NCBI GenBank assembly: GCA_964187785.1 | Contig: OZ076409.1 | Location: 45,696,001 to 45,760,000, forward strand | DNA length: 64,000 bases | From: Amphiscolops sp. MND2022 | Taxonomy: Eukaryota | Direction: 5' to 3' | In this document: piece by piece, positions 10,738-56,004 of the stretch | Position numbering within the stretch: position 1 is the first letter of the stretch | How the letters are laid out: each line of letters starts with the position of its first letter | Made by a program: the position numbers and the translations under genes | The notes under the pieces: generated by a model | What the model saw: the letters and a program-made list of their open reading frames with translations, nothing else | What the model was told of the DNA's origin: nothing | Databases searched by the model: none

Positions 10738-10739
10738 AA

Positions 10740-28914: not shown

Positions 28915-29120
28915 GAATGGACCTGGACAATAGACTCAAACCCACGCACTCCTGCTTCTCAGACCTCTTTAAGAAATTCGAGTTAAACTCTAGGCGAAGA
29001 AGTGGCAGTTAGAAGTTACAACTTACAGAAATGCTTATTTATAGACTATGCATTCGTTCGCTGGTCTTTGAAAAAAGCCACTATAGTCGGCATTTTCTAA
29101 CGAAAAGCGCCGACTAAAAA
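28915..29120 (-). mobile_element. 5' part of a family B element with a degenerate tRNA-like cassette
   Basis: AGTCGGCATTTTC...GAAAAGCGCCGACTAAAAA terminus; minus strand TCTGAGAAGCAGGAGTGCGTGGGTTTGAGTC resembles the cassette at 51170-51241. Confidence 0.65.
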
Positions 29121-30041
29121 CATTCGAAAAATTCTACAAGTTTAAAACGCCTTCGATTCTTCTCTGAAAATGATGACTTGGAGTAACGCAACTTGACTGC
29201 TACTAGAATTGACGAAGAAAACAGGTCGATAATAAGTCATAAGTAAAAAATCATTATTACGGCTTTCATAACATTTCAGTTTACGGAAAAATACAGGAGC
29301 ATTCTGAAATATTGAACCTCTTGGACAGTTTTCTAGGCAAATATCAAATGTCTCAGACTCTAGGGTAGCTAAAAAAGTAAATAGGGTATCAATTGAAAAG
29401 TAATTTGACAAGCTTTCACGCAGAAGTTTGTTTATTCTCAATCTTATAACCAAAGAAGTCTCAAACCTGTGGTACAGATAGAGCAAATATTTCTTTAAAT
29501 CGTAAAAAATCAGTTGATCTCAAATTTCCAAAATATTGAGGATTCATAAAAGCACAATATTGCGTGTTTTTCGGAGTACTCTGGAACGATTCAGCGCAAA
29601 TTCAGCCCCGGAAGACCTCGAAAATGTACAAATTTAGCGGAAAAATAGTTGTTCGGACCTGTAAACCACAGCTGCATGGAAAACTATCGAAACGAGCTGA
29701 AAGATACACCAGAGCCGCATATGCGGTAAAGGAGTCAGCTTAGGTCTTTTTCCTTCTGACTGGCTCGAATCCCAGTCATAATGGTGTACGTATCATTTTT
29801 TTTGTGTAAGTACAACCAGAAGGGAAAGGTTTACAAGAAAACCTTAATGTTTGCCACATAAATCGGGTGAAAAGAATCAGTTTCGCCGAACAAAATTAAA
29901 TCAAGTTCGGCAAAAATGGGCTAAACTGGTGGAATATCAATTTCTCTGACGAAAACGATGATTTAGTTACGACCTAGTCGTCTGATACTTTTCAGAATAC
30001 CGCCTGATTTTGGTTTTCGTCCATTAGTTACACCAAAACTC

Positions 30042-30528
30042 AACAAGCCGGAAACGGCCCAAGTCGGCGCCATATCTGAGGCTCAAAAATAGCAAAAGGA
30101 CTTCAAAGTGCCAAAAAAATTTCGAAATATGTTTGAAGTTTCTGGTAAGTCGAATAGTGCCGAAAAATGTAAAAAAGGGGGGGGCTTTGCGATTATTCGA
30201 ACATCCATTCTGTTGCAAAATAGAAAAAAATGAAGGGGGACCGTTTGGAGACATTAAAATTTGCGAAAAAAAGTCACACAAAGCCGAAAGAACATGCAAA
30301 AAAATGTGGTAAACGGGGAGACTCGAACCCACGTCCTTCTGCTTGGCAGACCTCAAAAAATCCTAATTAACATCTATGCCAAGTGCCAGTAGAAGTAGTG
30401 TGGCAGTTAGTGTTAGTGCAAGCCAGCTTATAAAGCTTATCTGTCACTTTGTTGGTCTTAAAAAAAAAGAAAAAAAAGAAAAGTCACCGCTATAGTCTGC
30501 GTTTCCTACGAAGAGCACCGACTAAAAA
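30042..30528 (-). mobile_element. Helentron-like family B element carrying a tRNA-derived cassette
   Basis: Hairpin GCCG-GAAA-CGGC plus AGTCGGCGC at one end, CCGACTAAAAA at the other; homologous to 55384-56004. Confidence 0.8.
30307..30387 (-). pseudogene. tRNA-derived sequence (Gly-GCC-like) with A and B boxes
   Basis: TGGCATAGATG A-box-like, CTGCCAA loop, GGTTCGAGTCT B box, T7 run downstream; cloverleaf degenerate and an internal T6 run is present. Confidence 0.6.
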
Positions 30529-30953
30529 TGCCGGCAAAAAACTGATCAGATCGAATGGCGAAATATAGATTTCTCCCATTGAAAACAGAGTTAACGCTGA
30601 TGTTTACATCGACTGTTTGAAAGAACAAGGTTCTACCCTTTCTGAATCTCCATGAAGTTGTTCAACAGGACAACACATCAGTCCATACAACTGAAAAACG
30701 ATGGTTTTTTTTCGAGAATGCTTTTACATTACTGGGAAACTGGCCCCTCAACCTCAGGATTTAATTATCCGGATTTTCACTGAAGAAGAATTTCACCGAT
30801 GTCCATACTTCTACACCTTATGCATCTATTGCGAGACGAATGCAAGGAATTTTGAAAAATAAAGGATACCCGACGAAGTATCAGACTTTTATTAAAGTTT
30901 TCTTTCACGTTTTTTCGTTTTAAACATTTAAAAAACTGAAATGATTTAAAAAC

Positions 30954-31734
30954 TAGACTTATAACCGGACACAAATTTACCGGATTCCGTATTATTCGGC
31001 ATTTTTCTACCGGATATTGACCGGATACCGGATATTTAGATTAACCGGATACCGGATAGTTAATACATTTTTTTGCCAAACTTTTTCTTCTTTATGTGAC
31101 GTTATGTTTTTGCTTTCAGAGTTTATGGATAAAATGACCGAAAAAATTTGGAACATTTTTACGGCCCAAACCGACCATAAGGCAAAATGCAATCAGCCGG
31201 GCTGTGGTGTTATGCTGAAACGGGGAACAAACCCATCGAATTATTCAACAACCCAGGCAACATTTTAAGATCCGCGTTTCAAAAACAGGTTCGTTAGTGA
31301 CCCGATGATGACTTCCATCAAGAATCTGATTGCTGATAGCAAAATTCAAGAAGATACCAGCCAAAACCAATCGAAGTAGCAGTAACTAATAGCAGTAATT
31401 TTTGGGATGTGTGGGGCACAAAAAGAAAATGTTGGAAACCTAGACACCGAAATGTCGTTGTACATAAGCCACCCAAAACGTGATGTCTCTCGATCCTCTG
31501 GACAACTAGCGAAACGAAAACAGCAACGTTCTGTCGAACCGAAGAAACAGGCTGAAACTTGAAATATCGGAGAAGTTGGTTTTCCTCCATGACAATCTTG
31601 GTTTTGTAAAAACCTTATAGATTGTTTTATTGTATAATTGTGTTTTTTAAGTGTCCGGGTTTTTTTACTGCCGGATACCGGATACATAATTGAGATTTTG
31701 CCGGATACCGGAACCGGATTCCGGTTAAACTCTA
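30954..31734 (+). mobile_element. Internally deleted hAT element with CCGGATA subterminal repeats
   Basis: Termini TAGACTTATAACCGG / CCGGTTAAACTCTA; TSD TTAAAAAC / TTAGAAAC; BED remnant IWNIF...AKCNQPGC and a DPRFK motif. Confidence 0.8.
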
Positions 31735-32341
31735 TTAGAAACCTTGGTGAAATGGCAAAAAGTTCAGAAGTCTCAGTGCCGGAAAAAAATCAAAGGACCC
31801 CTTTGTCTCATAGTTTTGTTGCAGATCAAACGAAAATAAATACTCAAAGAGGACCATTCGGCTGCTGTTTCAATCTTACGCGTAAACTCCAATAAGTAAG
31901 TATATCACACGGCGTGAACTTTGTGACCTGGAAAGAATGCACCTACTAAACGGTGAAGGGTTCGCGTTTTGGTACGCAGCATGAAAACCTGAACCACCAC
32001 ATTCAAAAATTCATATTAAAAAATCTTTGAAATTATAATTACCTTCAAGTCATAGAATCAAATCTAGAAAATCCGACAGCTACTAGAAAGTGCATCACCA
32101 CTGATGCTGTCTGTCATATCGCGTAGTCTCATTTACACAAAAAAAGGAAAACCATTCACAGAAAAGATAAAACCAACACATTAGAACTTTCTACAGTGCC
32201 ATTCAGACTTTTGACACCGCTAATAAGAGATTTAGTAAATGAGCGGCCGAACAATATTTTTCCAACAAATTCATTAGTGATTCAAACCGAGGGCAAGTAA
32301 TAAAATGATTACGTACCAAATGACATAAAAGCAAATAACCT

Positions 32342-32884
32342 AAAAATAGACCCCTGCGGGGAACATTACTATTTCTGCTTTAATCTTTCATTAATATTAT
32401 TACACTGCATTGTTTTAAAACCAAGATGATATTGTTTTAATACCAAAAGTATAAATCAGTGCTTTTTTAAATAATAGAATCATATCTGGAATACCAATAC
32501 TCATGCTCAATCATTATTTAGCGTACAATTAATCACTGTAAAGTTTACACCCCTTCTTCTCGGACTAAAGAAAATATGTACAACTACTAAGCGTAGACAA
32601 AGTTTCGCATTCGCAATTGAATGCAGGCGAAGCTTTCAACGAACAAATAATTAAGACTCATTCGCTTCAGCTCAATGACGTCAGCGTACGAATGCATAAT
32701 TAACACTCGCTCGTTCCATCGCACGAGAATTGAAATTTCGTCGGCAGCTTGAGAAATTTAATTCTCACGCTTAGTCACTGTCGAACAAATATCTGAATTA
32801 TTCAGTATCGTGCGAAAAATTGTACTGAAAAAAAGTAGACATCTTGAGATTTCAATAATATTTCTGCTACCGCAGCAATAATAA
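32342..32884 (-). mobile_element. Helentron-like family A element
   Basis: CCCC-TGC-GGGG hairpin plus TATTTCTGCTTTA; internal sequence homologous to other family A copies. Confidence 0.75.
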
Positions 32885-33071
32885 AAACTAATTTCATTTA
32901 TCATAATCTTATCATTTTCACAACAAAACTGTAAGACTCGGCAATCCTCCTTCGAGGGCACTTTGCGCCGATACAGGTCAACTTTTGTCAAAACTCACCG
33001 CTGATAATGGGACGTCGCTCCGCTTCCTTTCAACATTTAGGTCACCATATGTAGACGAAGTTGATCTATTC

Positions 33072-33398
33072 GGGTAGCATATTTGAGGCCCGAAACTAGT
33101 GTAATTTGAGGCCCGATCAATTTGGTGACTATTAGCGTCAGATAATATTATATCAGCCAATATGTATTTAACTTGATTTATTTGAAGAGGTTAGCATATT
33201 TGTTGTATGGCTCGGTCGCTCCGCTCCCTTCGCCAAGTAGCAACATTTAGGCATGGTCATATGGCACGTCGCTTCGCTCCTGCATTTAGGGCACTAGGGG
33301 TATGTGAATATAGCTGACTACGTTATAATAATAAGTTCGATGAACAAATTTTCGGGCCTCAGATAACATTTCATTATCGGGCCTACATAAACGTTCCC
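33072..33398. mobile_element. MITE, inverted copy of 5099-5449
   Basis: Same TIRs and core; TSD ATCTATTC / ATTTATTC. Confidence 0.85.
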
Positions 33399-33871
33399 AT
33401 TTATTCCTATCGTGGTAAGAATTACGTTATAGTAACTTGATTGAACATGCGCAATGATGAGCTTTGGCTAATCAGATTCAGTACCTTTGAGAGAAAATGA
33501 ACATTTATGTTTGATTAAATTAATTTTGTTTCTATGTTATTTGTTCTTATGCTATTTGGGAATCTATCAATAGAATTTTTAAAATCAAAACTTCCTCAAA
33601 GTATACACAGGGTTTTAAAACTCACTCAGTATGAAAGAATCCAGTCCTTTTCCTTGCAAAAACTAATTATCATTGAATTTTAAAACATACTCGAAGTCAA
33701 ACATTTATTTGAAGAAAAACGTTTTCAGCGAAATACCGAATTTGAGATTAGCGGCATAGCGTTAGCAAAAAAATAGCAATGGCAGGACCCTGGTGCCATG
33801 GCACCTTTACTTTGGTTCCAAAATTTCACGTTCTTACCAGTTAATTTATCGTATTTACCGTTGTAGATATG

Positions 33872-34954
33872 TTTTTTAGTCGGCGCATTTTAGTAGCAAA
33901 TGAGCCCGACTATTACAGTGGGTAGTTTTTTTAGACACGAAAGGTCCACTTTTTTGTTCATTTGTTCAACAACCTCAAACCTCAACAACTTCAAACCTCA
34001 ACAACTCCAACCTCAGAAGCGCGTCCAAAACGAAAAGAAAAAACAAAACAGACGTCCACAACCTCGAAAACACACTAAAGATCCCACCTTAGCCCCACTT
34101 TTTTTCGGCACTATGCGACTTTTTTTTGAAGTTTTTTGGATTGCACCAGAGGGTCCCCCTTCATTTGTTTCGATATTTTGCAACACAATGGATGTCAAAA
34201 AATTGCAAAGGGTCCCCCCTTTTACATTTTTCGGCACTGTGACACTGTTCAAAAATCTCATTTTAAAAATTTTTTGGGAAATTTTTTCATGTCTCCAAAG
34301 GGTCCCCCCTTCAATTTTTTAAATTTTTTGCAACCAGCTGGAGTTTCACAAAGCCTGAAGGGTCCCCCTTTTAAATTTTGAGTCTTAGATATGGCGCCGA
34401 CTTTGGCCGTTCTCGGCTTGTTTTTAGTCGGCGCATTTTAGTAGAAAATGTGCCCGACTATTACAGTGGGTAGTTTTTTTTTAGACACGAAAGGTCCACT
34501 TTTCTGTTCATTTGTTCAACAACCTCAAACTTCAACAACTTCAAACCTCAACAACTCCAACCTCAGAAGCACGTCCAAAACGAAAAGAAAAAACAAAACA
34601 GACGTCCACAACCTCGAAAACACACCTTAGCCCCACTTTTTTTCAGCACTTTTTTGAAGTTTTTTGGATTGCACCAGAGGGTCCCCCCTTCATTTGTTTC
34701 AATATTTTGCAACACAATGGATGTCAAAAAATCGCAAAGGGTCCCCCCTTTTACATTTTTTGGCACTGTGACACTGTTCAAAAATTTCATAAAAAAAAAT
34801 TCTTGGGAAATTTTTTCATGTCTCCAAAGGGTCCCTCCTTCAATTTTTTTTCAAATTTTTTGCAACCAGCTGGAGTTTCACAAAGCCCGAAGGGTCCCCC
34901 TTTTAAATTTTGAGCCTTAGATATGGCGCCGACTTTGGCCGTTCTCGGCTTGTT
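33872..34954 (+). mobile_element. Two head-to-tail family B elements (junction 34420/34421)
   Basis: Each unit starts TTTTTAGTCGGCGC and ends GCGCCGACTTTGGCCGTTCTCGGCTTG. Confidence 0.85.
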
Positions 34955-35016
34955 CATTTCTAAAGTCTGCCAACAAAGATCGAAATGAAAAGGTTTCACA
35001 CTATTGTATAACTAAC

Positions 35017-35509
35017 CTAAATTATAAGTGGGCATTTTAGTTACATAAAAACAGGGCGCTCCGTCACACAAAGAGGCAACAACTTCAGCATCTGGCAGGC
35101 AGTACTTTAACGCATCTTTTACAGAATTGGCGAGAAACCTCATGAGACAAGAAGAAACAGTCTCACGTAAACCCGGAAGAGCTGCCCCGACATTCCGTTC
35201 AGTAGCAAACTTCTGGTCTGAGTACGATGACTTTTTCATCAGACTGCCCAACTCATATTCAGACTCGTAGGACGCTTGCGAACAAAGATCTGTGTTCAGA
35301 GGCACTAAAGCTGCAATTTGAACTGTTTTGTAGTCAGGTTCACTAGAGTTTGAATTGACACCTGTATTGGGTTGAAATAGTTGCATCATGTAATACTTGG
35401 GTTTCAGATAACCATCCACTGATTCAACGCAGACTACAACAAAGGACTGCGAATTGTTCTCCAGTTGAACAAATATTTTTGAGTCTGGCAAACTGGTGTA
35501 TGGATGAGA
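35017..35509 (-). CDS. MED14: MED14 coding exon 7
   Basis: SHPYTSLPDSKIFVQL...FVVV...PKYYMM resembles THPIGNLSKNKLFIKL...YIVV...YKYYFM; ttttAG / GTtagt. Confidence 0.88.
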
Positions 35510-36706
35510 CTAAAACAACATCAAGATAACAAATATCAAATATTTTGAGTAGTAGTATTGCATCAAATTGGAAATCTATTGCTCAACTCGAAACAAAATA
35601 ATAACCGAGCATTGACTACACAAATATCTAATGATTTGAAACCGAAATCGTATCATGAAACTCAAAAGGTATTCACACAAGAACTAAGAAAGAGAGTCAA
35701 AGAATTTTCAATTTACAAACTCGACAAGTGCGTCGAAACATTACCCCGAAGATCGAATCTTTTGGTTGAGTGAGGACCTTTTGGTACGATCTCGATCAAG
35801 TAAAAGACTAAAAGATCAAGTACAAGACTAAAAGACTAGACATTTCGGTGTCCGAATCAGTAAGTCTTGTAGGGGATGTCTCCATGAGTTAGAAGGAAGT
35901 AAAATCTCATTTCCGAGGCAGAGCCGTGAACAGTGCATGAGATCTTTGTTTCGTGTCAGCCGAGGTTCGCCAAAGTTGCTCAATTAGACGATGCATGTGA
36001 TTAAATCCCCGGGAGTCTAGATAACAGCGGGTCTCACCAATAAAACAAGCTGCAATACCTGCAAAAGGATTGGGAGTGTAACCCACCTCTGCTCCTCCTC
36101 CCAGTAACAAACTTGCGGAAAAAACATTTTGTCATTAAACTAATTGGAGAATAGCACCCTACTCGTAGGGAGGCTTTCTCAACGGACAGGCAAGTCTGAA
36201 TTAGGAAAACGTTATAAAAACAAACCTCTTTCGCTATCAGATTTTCTCTTCTGTCTGTAATTGAGATACAAATTGAGGTGCAAACAAATGTGACACTATG
36301 GTCGATGCTTGCTTTCTAATAAAAACGCTTCTCCTTGTCAAGCAAGAGACTTGCCCGTAATGAAAAGTATGACCTGAACTACTCAAACGTTGATGCTCGT
36401 CTAACTGGGCTGAAACGCGGACTCAGTAAAAGGTACTCATAAGGGAGTACATGGTACTTTTTTCTGTAGACTTTGGTTTTTGACGCACTGATTGACGTCG
36501 CTTGAATGTTGGAATCGTTTGAGGCGTCTATAATATAACCGGCGGTTCAAGTCGTAAAATTCTGTGTTTACTGTTCCTGATGATTAGCACTGAAAACTTT
36601 GAAGGTCAATGGTTATAGGCCCCTAAATGGGCACTGGAACACATCCCGAAAACAATTAACTAGACTTTTTCAGCCAATTTTGGAACGGATAATATTAATA
36701 GCTTAC

Positions 36707-40280: not shown

Positions 40281-41950
40281 CTAAAACAGCAAAACTCTAA
40301 ATATAACTGTTCATTTTCCTAATCGCCAACCTCGAAATAGCAAGTTTGCGCTTTCCTCAAAGGCCCAAATATGAACTGAATTCAAATTTTGACTATGAGA
40401 AATTTCGAACTTCAATAGTCGCGCATTGCTAAAATAATACAAGAGGAGGTTTCATCTAACTTTTGTGATTGCAGGATGCTAAAAGTTTTAACGAAGACCG
40501 TCAATGAGTATGACAAAAAACTTTCCGCTATCCATTATTTGAAAAATATAGGCGGAAAATAATTTGAAAAATTAACCCGCTGAGCACCGGGATAGTAACC
40601 GCCCTAAACTACTTTAGCGACAACACTTGCACAAAAAGTTTGAAAACTTTGAAAATTTGATACCTCTTGGTTCAGTCATAGTTTCAAAAGTTCGAATATC
40701 TCCACAAATATACAAGCTACGAACTTTTTTTCAAGTTGAAGTATAGAACTTTTATTTTTGAGTGAAAATTGGAACACAGCAAAATTTGGAAAAATGATCT
40801 CTGAATATCAGAATTGTTTCTTTACGATTCATATCCCGGCAACCAAGTTCCCAGATCTTGCGACTTGCATTAATAACCAATCACAGTGAGTTATTATAAA
40901 TAGTTTTAGACTTTTCTCATATTACACCAAGTGATAATTAGTTACACTGTATGACTAAAATTCACTAATTTATAAATGAATACTCATTAAAAGTGAAATT
41001 TAATCAAACTTTGACTAACTTACACATTACTAAATTAGCTTCTTTGCTGCACCACTACACTAATGGATTACTACAGTCTTTGACAAATTCACAGTAATTG
41101 ACTATTTTACCTAAAATACTATTCACACCAAGTGATCACTTTCCACTTTTGCGGGACATGTATCGTAATGTTTTCGTTGTCAAGACTAGTGCGCCATGGT
41201 GGCTTCAAAATAGCATGTTTACATGACGTTTGGTCAGTCAGTAACAAAATTCAGGAAAACTGTCAGATTAGATTGATAATTAACACAGAGGCGAAGCCGT
41301 GGTTCGCAAACACTTGCGAAGAAAGTTGCGAACTTTTGAAAAAAAAATAAGCAATATCATACGGAGAACCAAGGGTAAAATGACATTAAAATTTCATCAA
41401 ATTTACAGCGTCAAAAAATACCCGAAGGGATACGCATGAATCTCGAAAACCATTCTTCCACAACTGGAAACAGCAGAAAACCCATCTTTCTCAACCGAAA
41501 ACCTTTAAAAAAAAACAGAAACTTGAGGATTTTTTTCGAAATTTTTCGACAAAATTTTTTGAAGAAGGTCTCGGGTAAGTCGCATAGTGCACAAAAACCT
41601 TGAGCAGTCCTTCATGATGGCAAAACGTTTCGTTCCTAGTAAAAATTGAGGGCGGCTTCGATGAAAAGAAATTAGAAAAAAAGTCGCATAAAAAAGCCGG
41701 CCTTTGAAAACAAACAAAAATCGGATATAGCGTGCTGGGCCTGAGGAAACCTAATTTTATCACAAAAATTATTCCTTTTGAAAAATCTCACAAAGCCGAA
41801 AAAGACAGTTTGGAGTTTTTCGAAACATTTTCGAGAAAAAAAAGGAAATTTCAGTCTCAGTGCCGAAAAATCTGAAAGGGACGCTTTAAAATTTTTTAAT
41901 ATTCGTTGTTGCAAAAAAATCAAAAAATTGAAGGGAGGACACTTTGGGGA

Positions 41951-44900
41951 TGTGTTGACCCTAGTCCTGGGATAACTCGTTTATTTCAATTGGTCTAGAT
42001 GTAGATACCAGACTTTCTGGGTTGATTTCGTTCACTTCCGGAATCACAGTATCAGGCACTTTGCCCGACAGCGAGTCTATTTTTGAAGATAGATTTTCGA
42101 TCATTTTAAGGATTTCCCTCTGTCCCGTTTCAGGGTCTTTTATCCTCCTGCTAACAGATTTCTCAATATTCTCAGAGATCTCAGAGAAATCTCTGTCAGA
42201 GATACTCGGGACGTTCTGTTTTTAAACTTGTAGCTTCGGGTTCGCCTATCGAGCTTGTCAGAGAGTCTCTCCTAGCTTTCCTCCTAGATGTTCTTTCGGG
42301 CATTTTGAGTTCAGAATTCCAAAAATCTGGTCTTTTGGTCTAGAAATTTCTACGAAGTAGTGAAGAAGATGAAGATTCCCAAGTTTATTGATTATCAGAA
42401 CAGACAGTAAAAGTTTCGCAAAAATACAATTATCGACTGAAATTAATTTTAATTCACCAGATATCTATACCTTTTCGCTCGCGAGAGCGGGGGAAAATAT
42501 GCTCACCTTTCAGCCCGGCGTCCTTCCAAGGCAGGGAAACCGGAAGTTCAGTTCAGCTTTGTCGAACTCAGACTCTGTTTGTTTGTTCATGCTTCCCAAG
42601 GAAAGCACGCGTCCACTTCCTGTCTGAGTTGCGACTCCGCTTCCCTTCGCCTCCAAATACCACCTTTTCCAGACGCCGGAACTGAACTTGACAGTGAAAG
42701 TTTGGGAGTGAATCATCAAATTACAGCTGATGAAAGAAAATACAAATTGAGTGGAATAACACTAAAGATTTACAGAGGACAAAATGTCTCTTGATTTAAC
42801 TTTGTAACTCTACAAATACTGCACAAAATTATGATTTGCTTGGAAACAATGGAATTTTAGGGTATAAACAACGAAAATTACCGAGTGATCCAATCCTGGT
42901 CCCAGGCCAAGGGTCAGGCCATTCAACAATTAAACGTGGTTTACATGAGAAATAGCATTATAAAAAATAGGCCCCTCCGGGGCTCAGTACTATTTCTGCT
43001 TTATTCTTTATTTCTTGAAACAAAAAAATCATTAATAAATGAATCATATCTGGAATACCAATACACTCCTGTTTAATCATTACTTAGAGCACAATTAATC
43101 ACTGTACAAGTTTACACCGCCTTTAATTCTTCTCGGACTAAAGAAAATATAACTACTAAGCGTAGACGAGTTTCGCATCGCATTTGAATGCAGGCGAAGC
43201 TCTCAACGAACGAATAATTAACACTCATTCGCTTCATCTCAATAACTCGGGGCAACGAAAGCACAATTAGGAACATTTGCTCGCTTCATCTCAATGACGT
43301 CAGCATACGAATGAATAATTACCACTCGCTCGTTCCATCGCACTAGAATTGAATTGTCTTCGGCAGCTCTCTCGCTTACATTCACTACCGAACAAAACAT
43401 CTGAATTATTCAGATCGTCCGAAAAATTGTTCTGAAAAAAAGTACACGTTTCCAGATTTCAATAATATTCCTGCTAAAGCAGAAATATTAATTACATGCG
43501 ATCAACAATCGTCATTCGTTATCATGAGTATTAAGCTTCAGATTCATTAGGGAAAGAAGGATTATTAATAGCATCAACGTTCCCAATTTCTACAATGGAT
43601 TTTATTAAATTTTCATTCCAGGCCGCGTTCTGGGCCGCAGTAAATGACAGACTTTCTGGGTTGATTTCGTTCACTTCCGGAATCACAGTATCAGGCACTT
43701 TGCCCGACAGCGAGTCTATTTTTGAAGATAGATTTTCGATCATTTAAAGGATTTCCCTCTGTCCCGTTTCAGGGTCTTTTATCCTCCTGCTAACAGATTT
43801 CTCAATATTCTCAGAGATCTCAGAGAAATCTCTGTCAGAGATACTCGGGACGTTCTGTTTTTAAACTTGTAGCTTCGGGTTCGCCTATCGAGCTTGTCAG
43901 AGAGTCTCTCCTAGCTTTCCTCCTAGATGTTCTTTCGGGCATTTTGAGTTCAGAATTCCAAAAATCTGGTCTTTTGGTCTAGAAATTTCTACGAAGTAGT
44001 GAAGAAGATGAAGATTCCCAAGTTTATTGATTATCAGAACAGACAGTAAAAGTTTCGCAAAAATACAATTATCGACTGAAATTAATTTTAATTCACCAGA
44101 TATCTATACCTTTTCGCTCGCGAGAGCGGGGGAAAATATGCTCACCTTTCAGCCCGGCGTCCTTCCAAGGCAGGGAAACCGGAAGTTCAGTTCAGCTTTG
44201 TCGAACTCAGACTCTGTTTGTTTGTTCATGCTTCCCAAGGAAAGCACGCGTCCACTTCCTGTCTGAGTTGCGACTCCGCTTCCCTTCGCCTCCAAATACC
44301 ACTTTTTCCAGACGCCGGAACTGAACTTGACAGTGAAAGTTTGGGAGTGAATCATCAAATTACAGCTGATGAAAGAAAATACAAATTGAGTGGAATAACA
44401 CTAAAGATTTACAGAGGACAAAATGTCTCTTGATTTAACTTTGTAACTCTACAAATACTGCACAAAATTATGATTTGCTTGGAAACAATGGAATTTTAGG
44501 GTATAAACAACGAAAATTACCGAGTGATCCAATCCTGGTCCCAGGCCAAGGGTCAGGCCATTCAACAATTAAACGTGGTTTACATGAGAAATAGCATTAT
44601 AAAAAATAGGCCCCTCCGGGGCTCAGTACTATTTCTGCTTTATTCTTTATTTCTTGAAACAAAAAAATCATTAATAAATGAATCATATCTGGAATACCAA
44701 TACACTCCTGTTTAATCATTACTTAGAGCACAATTAATCACTGTACAAGTTTACACCGCCTTTAATTCTTCTCGGACTAAAGAAAATATAACTACTAAGC
44801 GTAGACGAGTTTCGCATCGCATTTGAATGCAGGCGAAGCTCTCAACGAACGAATAATTAACACTCATTCGCTTCATCTCAATAACTCGGGGCAACGAAAG

Positions 44901-47487
44901 CACAATTAGGAACATTTGCTCGCTTCATCTCAATGACGTCAGCATACGAATGGATAATTACCACTCGCTCGTTCCATCGCACTAGAATTGAATTGTCTTC
45001 GGCAGCTCTCTCGCTTACACTCACTGCCGAACAAAACATCTGAATTATTCAGATCGTCCGAAAAATTGTTCTGAAAAAAAGTACACGTTTCCAGATTTCA
45101 ATAATATTCCTGCTAAAGCAGAAATATTAATTACATGCGATCAACAATCGTCATTCGTTATCATGAGTATTAAGCTTCAGATTCATTAGGGAAAGAAGGA
45201 TTATTAATAGCATCAACGTTCCCAATTTCTACAATGGATTTTATTAAATTTTCATTCCAGGCCGCGTTCTGGGCCGCAGTAAATGACAGACTTTCTGGGT
45301 TGATTTCGTTCACTTCCGGAATCACAGTATCAGGCACTTTGCCCGACAGCGAGTCTATTTTTGAAGATAGATTTTCGATCATTTTAAGGATTTCCCTCTG
45401 TCCCGTTTCAGGGTCTTTTATCCTCCTGCTAACAGATTTCTCAATATTCTCAGAGATCTCAGAGAAATCTCTGTCAGAGATACTCGGGACGTTCTGTTTT
45501 TAAACTTGTAGCTTCGGGTTCGCCTATCGAGCTTGTCAGAGAGTCTCTTCTAGCTTTCCTCCTAGATGTTCTTTCGGGCATTTTGAGTTCAGAATTCCAA
45601 AAATCTGGTCTTTTGGTCTAGAAATTTCTACGAAGTAGTGAAGAAGATGAAGATTCCCAAGTTTATTGATTATCAGAACAGACAGTAAAAGTTTCGCAAA
45701 AATACAATTATCGACTGAAATTAATTTTAATTCACCAGATATCTATACCTTTTCGCTCGCGAGAGCGGGGAAAAATATGCTCACCTTTCAGCCCGGCGTC
45801 CTTCCAAGGCAGGGAAACCGGAAGTTCAGTTCAGCTTTGTCGAACTCAGACTCTGTTTGTTTGTTCATGCTTCCCAAGGAAAGCACGCGTCCACTTCCTG
45901 TCTGAGTTGCGACTCCGCTTCCCTTCGCCTCCAAATACCACTTTTTCCAGACGCCGGAACTGAACTTGACAGTGAAAGTTTGGGAGTGAATCATCAAATT
46001 ACAGCTGATGAAAGAAAATACAAATTGAGTGGAATAACACTAAAGATTTACAGAGGACAAAATGTCTCTTGATTTAACTTTGTAACTCTACAAATACTGC
46101 ACAAAATTATGATTTGCTTGGAAACAATGGAATTTTAGGGTATAAACAACTAAAATTACCGAGTGATCCAATCCTGGTCCCAGGCCAAGGGTCAGGCCAT
46201 TCAACAATTAAACGTGGTTTACATGAGAAATAGCATTATAAAAAATAGGCCCCTCCGGGGCTCAGTACTATTTCTGCTTTATTCTTTATTTTTTGAAACA
46301 AAAAAATCATTAATAAATGAATCATATCTGGAATACCAATACACTCCTGTTTAATCATTACTTAGAGCACAATTAATCACTGTACAAGTTTACACCGCCT
46401 TTAATTCTTCTCGGACTAAAGAAAATATAACTACTAAGCGTAGACGAGTTTCGCATCGCATTTGAATGCAGGCGAAGCTCTCAACGAACGAATAATTAAC
46501 ACTCATTCGCTTCATCTCAATAACTCGGGGCAACGAAAGCACAATTAGGAACATTTGCTCGCTTCATCTCAATGACGTCAGCATACGAATGGATAATTAC
46601 CACTCGCTCGTTCCATCGCACTAGAATTGAATTGTCTTCGGCAGCTCTCTCGCTTACACTCACTGCCGAACAAAACATCTGAATTATTCAGATCGTCCGA
46701 AAAATTGTTCTGAAAAAAAGTACACGTTTTCAGATTTCAATAATATTCCTGCTAAAGCAGAAATATTAATTACATGCGATCAACAATCGTCATTCGTTAT
46801 CATGAGTATTAAGCTTCAGATTCATTAGGGAAAGAAGGATTATTAATAGCATCAACGTTCCCAATTTCTACAATGGATTTTATTAAATTTTCATTCCAGG
46901 CCGCGTTCTGGGCCGCAGTAAATGACATTTCAAAAATCACCACGAATATTTAGTTAGTAAAACAATTACATGTATAGCATCGTTTCAATCGTTTTTCTAA
47001 GGCATTAACAGGTTTACATGTACTCAACGATAACGCGTTTATTATTAGAGAAAAGCGCACAGCACATTTTATTCTGAGGCCGCTTGCCAGGCCGGCGTCT
47101 CGCTGCTCAAATTTGAGACCAGGCTGCCAGGCCGCGGTTCTGCCATTTAATTTCTCAGGCCGCTTGCTAGGCCGTGTGATTCGATTGTTTTCACTTATAT
47201 AGCACTGTTTTAATACTATTAACGGCAAAATACCTTCATATTGGTTGGTACACTATATGTATGTATGTATATAATTCTATATAATTATATGAATATTGGT
47301 ATGTAATTCCTCTTGATTATAATATTATTTTAGCGCCGTTATTTCAGATTATTCAACATGAAATAGTAACATATATCACAAAACGGTTGCATGTTGATTT
47401 TGTTTTCTCTCCTTCATTTCCCATTTTGTTCTTCGTAGACTGGGTTCTTTGCGTTGCAATACTCACAGCTTATCTGGGGCTGTGACA
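41951..47487 (-). mobile_element. Probable solo LTR (TGT...ACA, 5-bp TSD) enlarged by nested insertion and triplication
   Basis: Begins TGTGTTGACCC, ends GGGGCTGTGACA; GGGGA at 41946-41950 and 47488-47492. Confidence 0.65.
42008..46927. repeat. Tandem triplication, 3 x 1639 bp, nearly identical; each unit holds a family A element (42962-43490, 44601-45129, 46240-46768)
   Basis: ORF track repeats at 42388/44027/45666 (period 1639); only scattered single-base differences. Confidence 0.97.
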
Positions 47488-47600
47488 GGGGACATTAAAA
47501 AATTTTCAAAAAAAGTCTCACAAAGCCGAAAGAGGGGAGTATCATAGTTCCGGAAAAAAGCGAAAACCTTCTGCTTCGAAACAATTGTAAAAAAAATTAG

Positions 47601-47673
47601 TGCATACGCGCAGGTTCGAACACGAACACTCTGGGTTGAAAAGCAAGCATCTTACCACTAGACCACGAACGGC
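47601..47673 (-). pseudogene. tRNA-derived sequence (Glu-TTC-like), 73 nt
   Basis: TGGTCTAGTGG A box, TTTTCAA loop, GTTCGAACC B box, T-run shortly downstream; acceptor stem does not pair. Confidence 0.65.
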
Positions 47674-48344
47674 TGAATTTTGCGACTTGCGGGCTGAAAC
47701 GAGAGTTGTCGCGCGGAAAAAAAGCACCCGCACTTTCTAAAAACACTTGCTTATCGCAAGTGTAAAAAGTTCAAGAGAATGAAATACCTTAAAGCTTACT
47801 TCTTGTTTACAGAACTATTTTCGAGCAAAATCACGCAAACTGTTTCAACCAGAGCTGTCAAGGTTTTGTGATCAACAGAAATCAAATTACTTTGCAACAG
47901 AAGCAGTTGAAGGAAAACAAGAGGCGGCCTCCTCAGGTTCACAATGAATCATTGACATACACTCAAGCTGTTTTTGAGAAAATTAGACTGAAAAATCTAA
48001 CAATGTGGAAAGGGGACGGATCCTTTTCTCAACTGAAAACATCATAAAACCAAAAAAATTAGCTTTCGAGAAACAAAACATTTTTCGAAGTTGCGCCAAA
48101 AGTAGTCACAGGGAAGTAATTGGAGTGAGCATTAACTGCATACAAAAATCTAATTTAGCTCAGCGACAATATCAGCTGTAGGCGCCAATACACTGTCCAA
48201 GGAAAATTTGAGAGCTTTGAATATAAATTTGAGAGGCTACGTGATTGACAGCAAAGTGACAATATGAAGCAAAATGACAGCAAATAATCTGCCAACACCC
48301 CCCGCCAAAAAAAAACGATTTAAAACTTTGGTTAGATTATCCAC

Positions 48345-48531: not shown

Positions 48532-49479
48532 CTAAACAAAAAGAATGATTGAATTAAAAAATTGACATTTCATTGGGAAGTATCTAGGACCGAATGTAGA
48601 CAACGTTAGCCAGTGATTTCTCCCAATAGATTGTTGTTGATAGTTCGGGGTTGTGAGCAGGGTTGGCAGAACGTGTATTTTCGAAAATAACAAACAGTTC
48701 TTCAACGTTTTTTACTTCTAGCTGTCACCGCAACTTGCCTTAAGAAAATCAGAGTCTCAAAAACATGCATTCCAAGCCAGGTGGAGAGGAAGTCGCGTTC
48801 CCTTCAAGCCTCTGGGTACAAATCAGCAAAACTTTTTCCGGTGAAAAAATAAATAACATGGTAAAAGCGTGCCAAAATTGGTTAAAACGTGCCATTATTA
48901 GATGGTAAAAACGTGCCATTATTAGATTTTTCAATAATAGATCGACTTGTCTGAACTATTCAAGGCTAATAGCATCAAATTTGTTTGGAATTTTTTAAAT
49001 GACAAAGCTGAACTACATGTATTACCTTCAACAATAAGAAATACGTATTACGAGTACAGACTTGTTTCATTAAAAACAATAGTGAACTTGAAGATAAACA
49101 AATATTGTTGACAATGGATTAAGCAGTCCGCGCGTTCAAAGTATTCCTTGAATTCTTCAGCATTAAAAAGTTTCAAAGGAAATGTTTAAAGATTTTGACG
49201 GATCAAATACCAAATCAAAACTTCAACGTATTTTTTATCAGTGACTAGGAAAGAATCAACAAAACGAGAACGTCTTAAAACGGCACCCCGCTTACGGGTC
49301 AAAAAGCGCAAACTCTTGGGAAGCCAGCGACTGAAAAGTGCTAAGTGGCAGGACTTTGGCGTGAATGTTTGATCAAAAAGTTTACAATTCAGTATGATAT
49401 CTTTTATTTGACAAAAAACTCGCCAATGTAGAAATCGGTCTTTTTTTGAAGAGAACGCTGACTAAAACTATATATGTAC

Positions 49480-49728
49480 CTTCCTTTCCACATCTGGTTT
49501 CCTCGGGAGAAGTTCAGCTAAAACAATAAGTTCGTGATACGCAGTTTGGACTGCTCTTTCGATTATGACGGATAATTTGATAGCATCTTGTTGCTGGTGA
49601 GTGGGCACAATTTGATTGGCTGCTGTCGACATCAATGACCCCTTCTGACCATCAAGCATGGGCGATGGCATTGAAGCAGGTGCAATATTATTAGGAGTAC
49701 TACTGATAGGGACCATCATAGATGCCAT
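49480..49728 (-). CDS. MED14: MED14 (Mediator of RNA polymerase II transcription subunit 14) coding exon 1
   Basis: AYHELIVLAELLPRKPDVERK resembles AYSELMVLTDLLPRKSDVERK; ATG 6 nt after a TTTCAG acceptor; AAG/GTac donor. Confidence 0.93.
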
Positions 49729-49875
49729 TACTATCTGAAAGCAATAAATATTTTCCAATATTTTATCCCGCAAATAAAACAACCATTCAGCACACACTTT
49801 ATATAGTTTCAACGGATAATTTTTTTGAATGATTTCATCTCACCGGAATATTCGCACATTCCGTCTTCTATATGG

Positions 49876-50477
49876 AAAATAGGCGCCTCCGGGGCACACA
49901 TTTCTGCTTTAATCTTTCATTATTAATAGAATCATATCTGGAATACCAATACTCTCCTGTTTAATCATTATTTAGCGCACAATTAGGCACTGTTACATTT
50001 TATACCGCCTTGAAATCTGTTACATGTAAATATCATCAAGTATTTCTTTCTACAATCAATTTGACTAGAATCAATTCAGTCTTTTAGTAGTAATAGTAGT
50101 AAATCTCGGACTAAAGCAAATATAACTAAGCCTAGACGAAGTTTCACATTCGCAACTGAATGCAGGCGAAGCTCTCCGCGAAAGTATAATCAACACTCAT
50201 TCGCTTCATCTCAATAACTCGGCGCAACGAAAGCACAATTACGAACATTCGCTCGCTTCATCTCCATGACGTCAGCTTACGAATGCATAATTACCACTCG
50301 CTCGTTCCATCGCACGAGAATTGAATTGTCGTCGGCAGCTAGAAAAATTTAATTCTTACGCTTATAGTCACTGCCGAACAAAACATCTGAATTATTCAAT
50401 ATCCTGCCAAGAATTGTACTGAAAAAAGTAGACATTTTGAGATTTCAATGATGTTCCTGCTAAAGCAGAAATAATAA
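49876..50477 (-). mobile_element. Helentron-like family A element just upstream of MED14
   Basis: ATTTCTGCTTTA / TAAAGCAGAAAT subTIRs, GC hairpin, shared core. Confidence 0.8.
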
Positions 50478-50705
50478 AAAGGAAACCTAATCCTTCAACG
50501 GCTTTTTTACACCGAATTTTGTCATGTTCCATAATATGTTCTACTAAAAAATCAAGTTTGCAGCACTTGTATTTATCAAAATAATCGGGCTTTTTTGTAG
50601 AAAAGTTTATAGAAAAAAGTGCCACGAAACATTATGTCAATATAAAGAAGAGCTTCGATATTCACGCTGACAAAAATTGTGGGGTCGAGACAAAAACCAT
50701 AGTTG

Positions 50706-51369
50706 AAACGAGCCAAGTCGCCGCCCCGCTCAAGTTTCGAAAAACCCAAGTTTCTTAAATATGCAAAGGTCACTATTGTTGAAATTTTATCAATTTCTCA
50801 ATGCCGAAAAATACCCTAAGGGATACGTATAAGACTCTCAGAAACCATTTTCTCAAACTGGAAACACAAAAACTTTTTGAAAAAAATCTGATTTTTTTAT
50901 TTTGGATAGTCTCATAGTCCCGAAAAGATTTTTTCAGAGTCACCCAGTGTCAAAAAATACCTCATGTTATTTCCACAATTATTGAGAAAACTCTCATGCG
51001 TTTCACAGTACCAAAAAATTCCTCTCAGCAAACCTCAAAAACAAAAATTTGGGAAAACGTTTTCTCACAAAATATTTTAACTAACTCTTCAATGAGTCGC
51101 ATAGTGCCGAAAAATTCTAAAGGAGGGACCTTTTTGTGTCCTCCCTACATTTGCAAACAAACAAACTTTTGGTTTAGTGGGAAACTCGAACCCACGTACT
51201 CCTGTTTCTCAGACATTGCGTTAACCACTAGGCCAAGTGGCAATGAGAAGTTTGCCAAATCGAATAACTCGTAGAACTGTTTTGACTGGTTCAAGTGTAT
51301 AGAAAAAAAAACTGAAGAAAAGCTATGACTATAGTCGACTCTTTTCTAAAGAAAAGCTCCGACTAAAAA
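50706..51369 (-). mobile_element. Family B-related element with tRNA-derived cassette
   Basis: AGTCGACTCTTTTC...GAAAAGCTCCGACTAAAAA terminus; shared internal subrepeats. Confidence 0.65.
51170..51241 (-). pseudogene. tRNA-derived sequence with A and B boxes
   Basis: TGGCCTAGTGG A box, CTGAGAA loop, GGTTCGAGTTT B box; ~72 nt. Confidence 0.65.
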
Positions 51370-51788
51370 TAGGCGTGGCACGGTAATATTTCTGCTTTAT
51401 TTAGGATACAACAATCATTAGCTTCAAAGTGCTATAATAAAATCATACAATGTATTGTAATTCCTAAACCTCATTTACATTCAAAAGTTTGCTCTCTAAA
51501 GTAAGTAACCATTTCATCAATTAGCGAATATTTTCCGTTGCCACATTTCCGAACTCTACGTTTGGTTCATTTTTGACGAAAAAAAATTGTTTTCCAATTG
51601 AGCATTCAAACTAGAAACTCGTACAAAAACTTGTACTGAACAAATAAGATTTGTCACATAAATCATTCAGCATGCCCAGAAGTGTCAACCTTTTGCCTCT
51701 ACACCAGCGTGGTATAATTTTGAAGGAAACTGTTTCCGAATATTTTTTGTGAGTTAGAAAAACGTACGAAACAGAACGTTTGCATTGG

Positions 51789-52914
51789 AAACAAGACAGG
51801 AACGTCTCAAGTCGGCGCTATATCTAAGGCTCAAAAAGCGCAAAACATTTTATTTGGAAAAAAAATTTCTTTCGGAAAATGTCGCACAGTGCCGAAAAAT
51901 GTAAAAGGGGGACCCTTTTTGATTTATAAACACGCATTCTGTAGCAAAATAACAAAAAACTCAAAGGGGGACCCTTTGGAGACATTAAAAAAATTTCGAA
52001 AAAAAAGTCACACAGTGCGGAAAAAAATCTAAAGGGAGGACCCCTCAGTCCCGTCCGGGCTTGTAGGTAACGTTTAAAAAGTAAAAAACCAAAGGGGGAT
52101 CCTTTGGAATAATTTACATGCGTTTCCCTGGTATTTAGTTTCCTTTAGTTGAACGTTAACGTTCGTCGCTTCGAGTCTGTCTTAAATAAAAACAAGCCGG
52201 GACCGGCCCAAGTCGGCGCCATATCCAAGGCTCAAAAATAGCAAAAAGACTTCCAAGTGTCAAGTATTCGTTTACAGTAGTCGAAACTCGAAAATTTTTC
52301 GAAAATTTTTTTTTTGAAAAAATTACATACTAAAAAAATGGACCGAGTGGCGCGCCGGGGCTCGCTACCGCGAGCCCCTGGCGCGCTAACGTCTCACAAT
52401 GCCGAAAAACTGAAAAGGGGGACCCTTTGAGGTTTTTCAACATCCATTCTGTCGCAAAACATGAAAAAATTGAAGAAAAAATTTTTTTTATTTTCGGGAG
52501 AAAATCTCACAATGCCGAAAAAAACTGAAAGGAGGAACCCTTTGGGATTTTCCAACATCCATTCTGTCGCAAAACATCAAAAAAAATGCAGGGGGGACCC
52601 TTTGCGGAAAAAAAATTTCGAAAAAAAAATCCGAAAAAAATGTCTCGCAGTGCCGAAAAAAAATGAAAGGTATGATATGTTACGCGGAAAAACAGGTAAA
52701 TTCATTTTGGTCCAGTTCGCTAGGCCAAATGGTGCTATTTGACACCATAATATTTTGTAGAACTTTTAAGAACTATTTTGGTCAGTTCGTGTGGATTGAA
52801 AAAAAAAAAAGAAAAGTCACTATAATAGTCGCGTTTCACTTCATGAAGCGCCGACTAAAAAACGAGTGACTGTAATAGGCGGGCTCTTTTCTTAGGAAAA
52901 GCGCCGACTAAAAA
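51789..52914 (-). mobile_element. Family B element with a second family B copy (52188-52861) nested inside
   Basis: Two 3' ends (51789, 52188) and two 5' ends (52861, 52914) in nested order. Confidence 0.75.
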
Positions 52915-53207
52915 CCAAGTAACCATAATTCTTACTAAGTCTTTATATAGTTAAAGAACCGCTGTTTAAAATAACTTCATATCCCACGTGCAACAAATAT
53001 GTGATTCAAAATACTAAAAGCAGTTTCCAAAATCTATTCGTGATTTCCAAATTGTCATTCGATTTGAAATCAACAAATTTCATTAAAAACCGCGATGCTT
53101 CAAACCAATAAAATGCTATTACAATATCAAAAACTGATCGCGATAAAGATTTCTTTCTCCAGTCAAACAAAAACAATCAAAAATAGTTATCATATTATTG
53201 CAAAGAA

Positions 53208-53777
53208 TCAATCAGCTTTATCATGTAATAATAGTTTACTGTTGTTTCTCACAATTTCATCGTCCGACTGACTAGCTTCTATAATTTCGACATTTTGTAA
53301 AACTGTTATCGGAAACTTATTCAAATGGTCGCCAGTTGCACCTCTGAAAGAAACGGTGTTGGCGGATATCTCATCAGCTGGAGATACAGTCGAGGAGGAA
53401 GGATCCTTTGTCTCAGAATTTGCAGCAGCGTTCAAAATAAGACAGGCGTCTTTCTCAGTTTGGATGTGGTATGCAGACAAATCGACAGTACTATTTTCTG
53501 TGAACAAAGGAGCTTGCCCAGCTTCTGATTGGTTGAGTTTCTCCAACGATGCACTTATGATAGGTTTCTCGGGAACAGTGGAAGGAGGCACTGCATTGGA
53601 TATGTCCATAGATAGAGAAGTTCTTGAGATTCTGAAATACTGTTCTGATTTCGACATTGACTGATCTTGTAGAGAGAGTTTAGGTTGGCCTGATTTGTCA
53701 GCCGTAGTCGGACTGTGGTTGGATGAATTAGCTGATTTTGATAGATTCGACTGAACGTCGCAATGCTCTTTGACAAT
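53208..53777 (-). CDS. TAPT1: TAPT1 last exon (Ser-rich tail)
   Basis: gtttAG acceptor, phase 0; IVKEH follows QSCK (cf. KSCQYVKE); open to the stop at 53208. Confidence 0.75.
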   Translation of the reverse strand: MVKEHCDVQSNLSKSANSSNHSPTTADKSGQPKLSLQDQSMSKSEQYFRISRTSLSMDISNAVPPSTVPEKPIISASLEKLNQSEAGQAPLFTENSTVDLSAYHIQTEKDACLILNAAANSETKDPSSSTVSPADEISANTVSFRGATGDHLNKFPITVLQNVEIIEASQSDDEIVRNNSKLLLHDKAD

Positions 53778-54755
53778 CTAAACACGAACTATATTCTTGT
53801 GAATCAGCCAAGGAGACAAGTAAAATGAAAATCAAGAGCGTCTCCGATAAAGGGACTACTATGCATTCACAGAATAAGGATTCGATTTCAGGGCTGTCAA
53901 AAACACGGCGTGAATTGCCGCGCAAAATAGCGCATGTTTCAATGTTTTTTTAGCGTGTAAACCAGGGAGCTTGATGCATTTTTCAAAATTAAGTCGCTCC
54001 TATTTGTCATATAATTCTAATATTATTGCCATAAGAAGGGCGCTTTACAAAAAGGCTCTAAAAGGAGAAGGTAGCATTGATGTTTCAGGAGGATCGAAAA
54101 AAACATCAATTCTTTCACACCATATTCCAAATACAAAAATTCGTGATTAAGTCTTAAAGTGAAACATCGCTAATGGTTTTAGTGGGTAATTTAACGAGTA
54201 AAAAGCATTTAATTTACTGCGAAAAACGGTACATTCTTCGGTGGATTTTCCACAGCCGACTTCGATAAACGCAACAGAAGTCTTAAATTTTCCTCAAGTA
54301 CATCTTCAGTGAGTTAAACTCAAAAGCCGCAATTACCTTTTACAATCATTGATTTGAAACTACATGTAACGCCAAATACGAAATACTCTTTCGTATAACT
54401 TAGAATAACTTACAGTAGTTGGCTTCGGTGTCCGGACATCACGTCCAAGCACATTGCGCCCAAAAGAAGACCGAGTCATACAACATTTTTCAAAAATTGG
54501 GCGTCATGTCCTAGAACTGTTGACTGCATTAAAGAAAAATTAAGTAATGTATTAAATGGAACCAAGGATAAGTTGCCAGAAACCGTTCCGTTTCGATGAA
54601 CGGAGAGCGATATCATGGAAGGTCGCGTCGGGGGAGAATGAACAAAGTCCAGCACGAGGGGTAGATTTTCAACAAATGAATATGGGTTCAACTTTATCGC
54701 GAGTGTTCAATGGATACGGCATCCTAAATCTATTGGTGACGCACTGGACACTAAC

Positions 54756-55006
54756 CTTACAAGATTGCTTCAAGATGTACATGCTAGTCAGTGTTTTGAT
54801 GATGAAGCTCACTGGAATGATGACCGTCAAACTGGCGAAAGATGACCAAAAGTTGGAGAACAGCGTCTGATCGAAAGTTTTGAAGAGAACACAGATCAAT
54901 GGAATCGGGTTCTGACCCATCTTGCGTGCAACTACGTCACAGTGCTCTGATACCGCCTCTTTCCGTTTACTCATTACCATGTCAATGGCTAAACTCAGTC
55001 GATACT
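54756..55006 (-). CDS. TAPT1: TAPT1 penultimate exon
   Basis: EYRLSLAIDMV...DVVARKMGQNPIPL resembles YRASLAFDLV...DSVARRMGFIPLPL. Confidence 0.92.
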
Positions 55007-55383
55007 CTACAATAAACAAACCAGTGCATTAACTTTGCTTGAGTTTGAGGAACGGCAAAAAACCGAGTGAGAGAAATTTGCAAAAGACATTTATGCATTA
55101 ATTATAACTCTGGACTATTTGACAAGACAATGATACCAAAACGCGAAAATCGGTGTCACTCAACTGATTTTAAACATAACTACCTTTCAAAAATCTTGAC
55201 TGACCGCCAGAAACGTTTGAAAAAAAAGCACAAGAAAAACGGTTGTAAAGTTTTGACTTTGATGTTGAAAAAAAAAACAAAAAAACTGGTCGATATCTAA
55301 TTAATACTCATTAAAAAAATTCGGTCGTAAATATTTCAGTCAACAAGCGTCTCAAAAACGTTGAGCACAACCGAGCAGACCTC

Positions 55384-56004
55384 TTTTTAGTCGGCGCTTT
55401 TCGAAGAAAAACGCAGACTATAGTAGTGACTTCTTTTTTTTAAGACCAACGAACTGACAGATTTTATAAAGAGTTATAAATAGCGGAGCTGACTTCACTG
55501 CACTAACAGTAACTGCAACGCTAGCCATCACTGCTGGCACTTGGCATAGAGGTTAATTAAGCTTTTTGACTCGTCTATGGGGACCGTGCGAAGCGAAACT
55601 ATGTTGGTCTGCAACCAATTAAGCTTTTTGAGGTCTGCCAAGCAGAAGGACGTGGGTTCGAGTCCCGTCCTTGATCAAATTTTTTATGCAGGTTTTTTTC
55701 GGCTTTGTGAGACTTTTTTCGCAAATTTTTTTAATGTCTCCAAAGGGTCCACACTTCATTTTTTTTCTATTTTGCATAAGAATGGATGTTCAAAACCTCC
55801 CAAAGGGCCCCTTTTACAATTTTTCGGCACTATGCGACTTACCGAAGACCAAAAAATTTCGAAAAAAAAATTTAAAAAAAATTCGGATTTTTTTAAATTT
55901 TTCCTCACGCGGGTACTGTAAAAGAGAATACTTGACACTTTGAAGTCCTTTTGCTATTTTTGAGCCTTAGATATGGCGCCGACTTGGGCCGTTCCCGGCT
56001 TGTT
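55384..56004 (+). mobile_element. Family B element with tRNA-derived cassette (A box 55542-55552, B box 55655-55665)
   Basis: TTTTTAGTCGGCGC start; GCGCCGACTT-GGGCCG-TTCC-CGGCTT end; TGGCATAGAGG and GGTTCGAGTCC. Confidence 0.8.

Follow-up and report, generated by a model that had tools for sequence, protein, structure and literature searches.

The 64,000-nucleotide stretch analyzed here (the window; positions 45,696,001 to 45,760,000 of contig OZ076409.1 of Amphiscolops sp. MND2022, G000:C1:45696001-45760000 in our numbering, in a genome of 1.07 Gb) contains exons of MED14, a DUF747 gene, a frame coding for a caspase domain and numerous repeats. Among these repeats are five blocks that resemble tRNAs, with A and B boxes as in tRNA-type RNA polymerase III (Pol III) promoters, and all five sit in non-autonomous Helentrons of the HINE/DINE-1 type. 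The blocks lie 91-147 nt inside the 5′ subterminal inverted repeat (subTIR) of their elements and in the orientation of the element, and the elements belong to two families: family A, with the subTIR AGTCGGCGC in four copies, and family B, with ACACTTGCG in one. In these respects, and in the T-run that follows three of the blocks (30307, 47601 and 55536), the analysis bears out the original prediction made for this stretch. The elements and the blocks, hereinafter cassettes, are:

28915..29120, minus strand: 5′ fragment of a family-A HINE with a decayed cassette; subTIR and inverted repeat at about 29083-29115; B box 28932-28942 with C56>T (B-box C56 lost)
30044..30528, minus strand: complete family-A HINE of subfamily A1, with T5, subTIR and inverted repeat, cassette, central repeats, 3′ subTIR and hairpin
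30307..30387, minus strand: A1 tRNA-like cassette; A box 30371-30381 with one G missing; B box 30319-30329; T6 between the boxes and T7 after them
47488..47768, minus strand: 5′ part of a family-B HINE; subTIR ACACTTGCG at 47755-47763 with an inverted repeat
47601..47672, minus strand: family-B tRNA-like cassette; A box 47655-47665; B box 47612-47622 with intact core and T at position 52; T8 at 47589-47596
41293..41802, minus strand: 3′ part of a family-B HINE that includes the 3′ subTIR and the hairpin; it may be the other end of the copy at 47768 or a fragment by itself
50705..51369, minus strand: family-A HINE of subfamily A2 with a degenerate 3′ end
51170..51241, minus strand: A2 tRNA-like cassette; A box 51225-51235; B box 51182-51192, carrying C61>T and not followed by a T-run
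55385..56002, plus strand: complete family-A HINE of subfamily A1
55536..55680, plus strand: A1 cassette split by an insert; A box 55542-55552; B box 55655-55665; 47-nt insert at 55570-55616 between the boxes; 15-nt duplication at 55555 and 55617

The original prediction gave recognizable A and B boxes for four of the blocks; several of the boxes are damaged, at 28915 (C56), 51170 (C61), 30307 (the A-box G and T6) and 55536 (the insert). At the level of consensus, an A box and a B box at tRNA spacing followed by a T-run are found in A2, B, a further family C and the autonomous form of family B (see below); A1 has T6 between the boxes, which would likely stop Pol III, and a third subfamily, A3, lacks the A box. 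The 47-nt insert at 55570-55616, whose 15-nt duplication is a target duplication, occurs in no other copy among the loci examined and may be a truncated retro-insertion.

The class of the elements is supported by their ends and by their mode of insertion. Searches of the genome recovered 30 loci for A1, 25 for A2 and 25 for B (from 7607, 2578 and 2212 first-look candidates, respectively, which are not copy numbers), with full-length relatives in unrelated flanks. Conserved ends embedded in unrelated flanks are seen in 30 A1, 25 A2, 25 B and 12 C copies. Families A, B, C and D have subTIRs of 11-15 bp near both ends, with a palindrome or inverted repeat at the 5′ end, and the 3′ hairpin read off the consensus ends was also recovered by a hairpin scan. 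De novo scans recover families A, B, D and one more, and missed family C. The flanks are T-rich, flank repeats of 4-6 nt are present in 3 of 77 complete copies, which is the chance level, and empty paralogous sites display insertion into T-rich sequence with no target-site duplication (TSD). All four testable features of HINEs and Helentrons, the autonomous partner described next among them, are present, and the consensus ends match the HINE/DINE-1 ends described in passages of Thomas et al. 2014 (PMC4067079).

Autonomous elements with the same subTIRs, which the original prediction had proposed to look for, were also found. A search for the Helitron_like_N (Rep) domain (PF14214) gave 152 matches, around 25 of which we fetched about 20 kb. 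Rep, PIF1 helicase and AP-endonuclease domains occur between family-A ends, in one case in a single open frame of 2304 aa, and likewise between family-B ends, where five copies are ~99% alike over up to 10 kb with frames broken into pieces. In all three autonomous family-B copies with a visible 5′ end the cassette lies ~95 nt inside that end; hence, the family-B HINE likely inherited its cassette from an autonomous parent. In family A none of five autonomous 5′ ends carries a cassette, and one found just upstream of an autonomous copy is part of a HINE into which that copy inserted. No autonomous partner with C or D ends was seen among the 25 fetched stretches of the 152 Rep matches, and an A+B pair upstream of a Helentron frame of 2545 aa falls within shuffle expectation. 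As to other features of these elements, in the fetched loci L148:4532-5509 and L131:5360-10000 autonomous family B has a UCH (ubiquitin C-terminal hydrolase) domain ahead of Rep and autonomous family A gives a weak JAB/MPN match, and a dense cluster of Helentron-like frames of ~2375 aa, many uninterrupted, occupies G000:C1:71.6-76.5 Mb.

The cassettes themselves are tRNA-like relics and not tRNA genes: they form no cloverleaf and their covariance scores stay under threshold. Scanned alone, two window blocks have tRNA as their best Rfam match at 19.1 and 14.9 bits (E 0.064 and 0.92), as does the cassette of an autonomous copy at 21.3 bits (E 0.03). The covariance-model check suggested in the original prediction did return tRNA as the best match, though with every score below the gathering score of 29. 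Across the whole window Rfam gave no tRNA match at E<=1 and ARAGORN in default mode called 0 tRNAs (its relaxed output of 37-205 calls is noise and was discarded), and none of the five blocks folds better than its shuffles.

A single alignment accommodates the blocks at 28915, 30307, 51170 and 55536 as copies of the same sequence. Outside the boxes, the A1, A2 and A3 subfamily cassettes are related to each other at z 4.3-10, and the 47601 block is unrelated to the other four (z<=2.1). The four family-A blocks of the window are hence one cassette at differing stages of decay. The earlier view that these elements carry different cassettes holds for 47601 and fails for the remaining four, and the supposedly differing anticodon-like loops GCC and GAG turn out to be diverged letters of one stretch, off the anticodon position in the long forms. 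A search for parents among 8 host sequences (Lys, two Arg, Pro, Leu, two Glu and one CGG type) found tRNA-Glu(TTC) to be nearest to the 47601-type cassette, weakly so (the autonomous copy reaches z 4.6 and the HINE z 2.6). No cassette rises above the host-to-host background among these 8 (best z 4-5.5 vs up to 6.5), such that parent tRNAs are tentative. Donors are plentiful: the genome has long tandem tRNA arrays and a true tRNA-derived short interspersed element (SINE) that is separate from the cassettes.

Several observations on tRNA-like sequence elsewhere in the genome can be placed beside these. A tRNA search returned ~118,000 rough first-look candidates. The tandem arrays (Lys, Arg, Arg, Pro, Glu) are very long, with mutated anticodons in many units, and lie at G000:C7:5.22-5.34 Mb, C8:47.9 Mb, C9:57.54-57.57 Mb, C6:55.0 Mb and C5:31.5 Mb. 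A further family, F (L301, L303-L315), consists of a block resembling Glu(TTC), then a hairpin and a 3′ end that is fixed; copies reach to different points on the 5′ side, and a TSD is not obvious. The block of this family is akin to the family-B cassette (z 5-7), one copy is called tRNA-Glu by ARAGORN, and L301 has two such blocks facing each other. L147 ~3600-3830 (G000:C4 near 55,486,200) is a near-perfect, MITE-like (miniature inverted-repeat transposable element) palindrome of ~230 nt with a tRNA-type B box in each arm and an A box at its center, and L155:9780-10000 is a similar perfect palindrome centered on a B box.

Within the window, 4 of the 11 family-A elements carry the cassette; the seven that do not are absent from the original prediction. 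These and the members of a fifth HINE family include:

52191..52860, minus strand: family-A HINE with an A-box-like remnant at 52717-52727 and no B box
33874..34970, plus strand: two tandem family-A HINEs without cassette
20682..21267, minus strand: family-A HINE without cassette
26367..26672, minus strand: short family-A HINE without cassette
10218-10740, 32338-32890, 42959-43495, 44598-45134, 46237-46773 and 49867-50480: fifth HINE family

The fifth family (subTIR ATTTCTGCT, 3′ hairpin, ~540 nt) has no tRNA-like block in any of six copies. The same patchiness holds beyond the window. In an even sample of 60 evenly spaced 10-kb stretches (599,600 bases), a pattern match to the B box is present in 3 of 36 family-A 5′ ends, and BLAST recovers 10 family-A cassette matches vs 54 family-A 3′ ends. 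The amplified family-A subfamilies have both boxes, the B box only, an A-box remnant only or neither, and most lack the cassette. Among those with one, A3 is an amplified B-box-only subfamily, one small cluster has C61 changed in its consensus, and A4 has a B-box block unrelated to the first, the second such block in family A. Family C (290 nt, copies 95-97% alike, with a 3′ hairpin common to B) bears its cassette in antisense. Family D (~290 nt), which rests on copies within the sequence analyzed here and for which a dedicated genome search gave no loci, has it near the 3′ end. Hence, the constant orientation and equivalent position claimed for the cassettes are right for families A and B and break down in C and D. 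At least three of the cassettes (A, B and C) are unrelated. The even sample holds 19 HINE cassettes after removal of 3 SINE matches, 2 family-F matches and 14 apparent 'B' matches that proved to be a tRNA-Pro array and were dropped before the estimate, which implies roughly 30,000 copies genome-wide, an order of magnitude only as the matches cluster. A metagenome scan for the family-B 5′ end yielded 3 matches, all unrelated GC-rich DNA fitting only the 20-21 nt pattern.

How might these blocks have come to lie in HINEs? That their likeness to tRNAs is mere chance is barely credible: the sub-threshold Rfam scores, the absent cloverleaf and the want of a clear parent would fit such a view; yet, more than one family has A and B boxes at tRNA spacing with ensuing T-runs, the Rfam alignments cover model positions 8-63 or 1-71 with hardly a gap, and strict B boxes (scored against the general A/B-box consensus) number 20 in the 599,600 evenly spaced bases vs 0-5 in 10 shuffles. 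It is also very improbable that each element received its block by a separate insertion of a free SINE, or that the elements are themselves SINEs. The genome does have a true tRNA SINE (2 strict matches), the head of which weakly resembles cassette C (z ~4); for A and B, however, the proposal is already contradicted. The SINE head fits neither of their cassettes (z<=1.9), and the position of the block is identical in every subfamily copy. Moreover, among the best-scoring 30 of ~470 candidates each from cassette-only searches for B and A2, the 5′-end motif is kept in 27 of 30 and 25 of 30 matches, respectively, and the remaining 8 of 60 keep internal element sequence upstream. Thus none of the 60 is a free SINE; cassettes occurring mostly as free SINEs had been named beforehand as what would tell against the prediction. 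Conserved element sequence precedes the block in 60 of 60, where a tRNA-derived SINE would begin with its tRNA head, and there is neither a tail nor a TSD.

On balance we favor, as somewhat the better-founded account, the view that the blocks are tRNA-derived A/B-box sequence captured as cargo and unneeded for transposition. The cassette is constant within a subfamily and absent from many others, and its dispensability follows from the 7 of 11 family-A window elements and the autonomous family-A ends without it, the single-box subfamilies and the cassette-free fifth family. Several observations pull the other way: 93 of 107 copies have an intact B-box core, variation at box sites is 0.69 times the mean of the element, and the odds ratio from a stratified count is 0.71 (p 0.005, treating sites as independent); 4 of 5 HINE families have one or more subfamilies with a block, and these blocks come from unrelated sources, much for random capture, though C and D were found via their own B boxes and the count is biased upward; and in the young autonomous family B the A+B pair is perfect and is accompanied by a T8 terminator and, 100 nt further on, by a second B-box half. 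The number of independent captures and the condition of the cassette in autonomous family B lend some weight to a selected role for TFIIIC or Pol III. Recruitment of TFIIIC requires no more than a B box, and such boxes can serve as barriers. It is conceivable, if less probable, that the cassette is such a module, helpful but inessential, in which TFIIIC at the B box, with or without a short Pol III RNA, keeps the element end open or unsilenced and raises transposition; apart from the repeated unrelated captures and the reduced box variation, the cassette with its duplicated B box in all three young autonomous B 5′ ends and the amplified A3 with 15 of 15 B cores intact speak for it, and TFIIIC is reported on Alu (PMC7014570). 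By the same tentative account, tRNA-type Pol III/TFIIIC modules would have been taken up by Helentrons of this lineage several times over, each time independently, because they aid transposition or escape from silencing, and ~30,000 candidate TFIIIC sites would have been seeded in this way.

Several observations stand against such a selected module. When sites are permuted, the boxes are not significantly more conserved (p 0.075 vs all other sites, 0.15 vs the rest of the cassette), and the 5′ terminus is (p 0.0002). The greater conservation of the boxes that the original prediction asked about is thus significant in the stratified count and a non-significant trend under site permutation. The A box is intact in 71 of 107 copies, and mismatches outside CpG run at 4.0% in the boxes vs 5.2% in the rest of the sequence, with no difference in family B; as these copies are top-scoring matches, all such rates are biased downward. 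Across family-A subfamily consensuses the conserved block extends well past the B box, orientation and position vary between families, most family-A lineages have no cassette, and around other autonomous families A+B pairs are not above shuffle level (9 in 479,701 bases vs 2-6 shuffled). That the boxes are maintained by the host, as scattered insulators or to supply small RNAs, is unlikely: in favor of it, there are tens of thousands of copies, many of them intronic (those of the window lie in and around MED14), and the boxes are slightly conserved; however, where the spacing is unbroken, as in 4 family-A copies of the window, the boxes are damaged in 3, decay is near neutral, and families B and C are young. 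Contigs of a seawater metatranscriptome (share 0.05) are uninformative on expression and strand: 70 aligned, 58 of them <95% alike, and none spans the stretch. Therefore, of the hybrid class envisaged at the outset, the part that stands is that the elements do spread A/B-box sequence; a distinct functional class does not follow, given the dispensable cassette and the non-significant trend in conservation.

Taking the blocks as captured cargo, we propose the following course of events. HINEs are likely copied by rolling-circle replication through the RepHel of enzyme-coding Helentrons with the same ends. Each cassette would have entered its source element once, through insertion of a tRNA-derived SINE or capture beside a tRNA gene, for which the long tRNA arrays are a potential source, in keeping with the capture of host sequence by HINEs proposed in section 15 of PMC4067079. 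It would then have ridden the expansion of its subfamily and decayed by loss of the A box, loss of the B box or gain of an internal T-run. Some copies, B and C foremost, are predicted to bind TFIIIC or to give a Pol III RNA of 70-90 nt; this RNA would end at the T-run and be too short to be a transposition intermediate.

The window has further features. A unit of 1639 bp is present three times at 99% identity at 42001-46900, inside MED14 and between both family-B fragments, and is either a recent tandem duplication or an assembly artifact. Decayed LTR (long terminal repeat) retroelement frames, which we take to be Bel/Pao-like and Gypsy-like, and a remnant of a DUF659 hAT-like transposase are found at 13232-18438, 57553-64000, 274-1068 and 22899-24524. 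Lone near-match B boxes outside the described families lie at 56385-56400 and 29762-29772.

No account of Helitrons or Helentrons with a block derived from tRNA came up in our literature search, whose scope did not extend to Repbase, Dfam, subscription journals or supplements, where one could exist. Yang and Barbash 2008 (PMC2374699) state that DINE-1 has neither a Pol III promoter nor a likeness to tRNA, and the word tRNA does not occur in Thomas et al. (PMC4067079) or in the oyster study (PMC7492417); the idea that bivalve Pearl elements contain Pol III boxes found no support. The tRNA-like blocks in Helentrons are real, repeated and apparently undescribed, as a variant within a known element type. 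Even as cargo they matter in practice, as tens of thousands of tRNA-like matches could mislead tRNA annotation and HINEs could be misfiled as SINEs.

Comparison with known systems places the elements as follows. As far as the passages cited go (PMC4067079, PMC2374699 and, for oyster Cg_HINE and Pearl, PMC7492417), HINE/DINE-1 elements share with ours a 5′ subTIR with a nearby inverted repeat, central repeats, a 3′ subTIR with hairpin, T-rich targets without TSD, an endonuclease-encoding autonomous partner with common ends, and tandem or nested copies. Unlike them, four families here have tRNA-like blocks, one of them also in its autonomous form. The tRNA-derived SINEs (SINE2) similarly have A and B boxes at tRNA spacing in a short, high-copy repeat; in contrast to these, the block here is internal, 90-150 nt from the end and at times antisense, with no tail of the LINE (long interspersed element) type and no TSD. 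The nearest analogue is TRIMp3, comprising Helenus, Cassandra and Ajax (Kojima 2024, PMC10886601, a paper with no mention of Helitrons): there too a Pol III promoter derived from a small RNA sits in a non-SINE element, with boxes kept and the tRNA fold lost, and a SINE insertion is proposed as its origin. However, TRIMp3 elements are retroelements of the LTR type, have TSDs and depend on an RNA copy, and our elements end in subTIR and hairpin without the LTRs, primer-binding site, polypurine tract and 4-5-bp TSD of Helenus; HINEs move as DNA, and their predicted transcript ends just past the cassette. Where mobile elements have Pol III promoters, as SINEs, Cassandra and Helenus do, these are accounted for by the requirement for an RNA copy. 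Their repeated occurrence in rolling-circle DNA elements, a young autonomous family included, would point to a second use of such promoters, for example in TFIIIC-based opening of chromatin or as a barrier. Should the blocks be recruited modules that help the element, these Helentrons would be the DNA-transposon counterpart of SINEs and TRIMp3, in which the promoter serves an element that needs no RNA copy.

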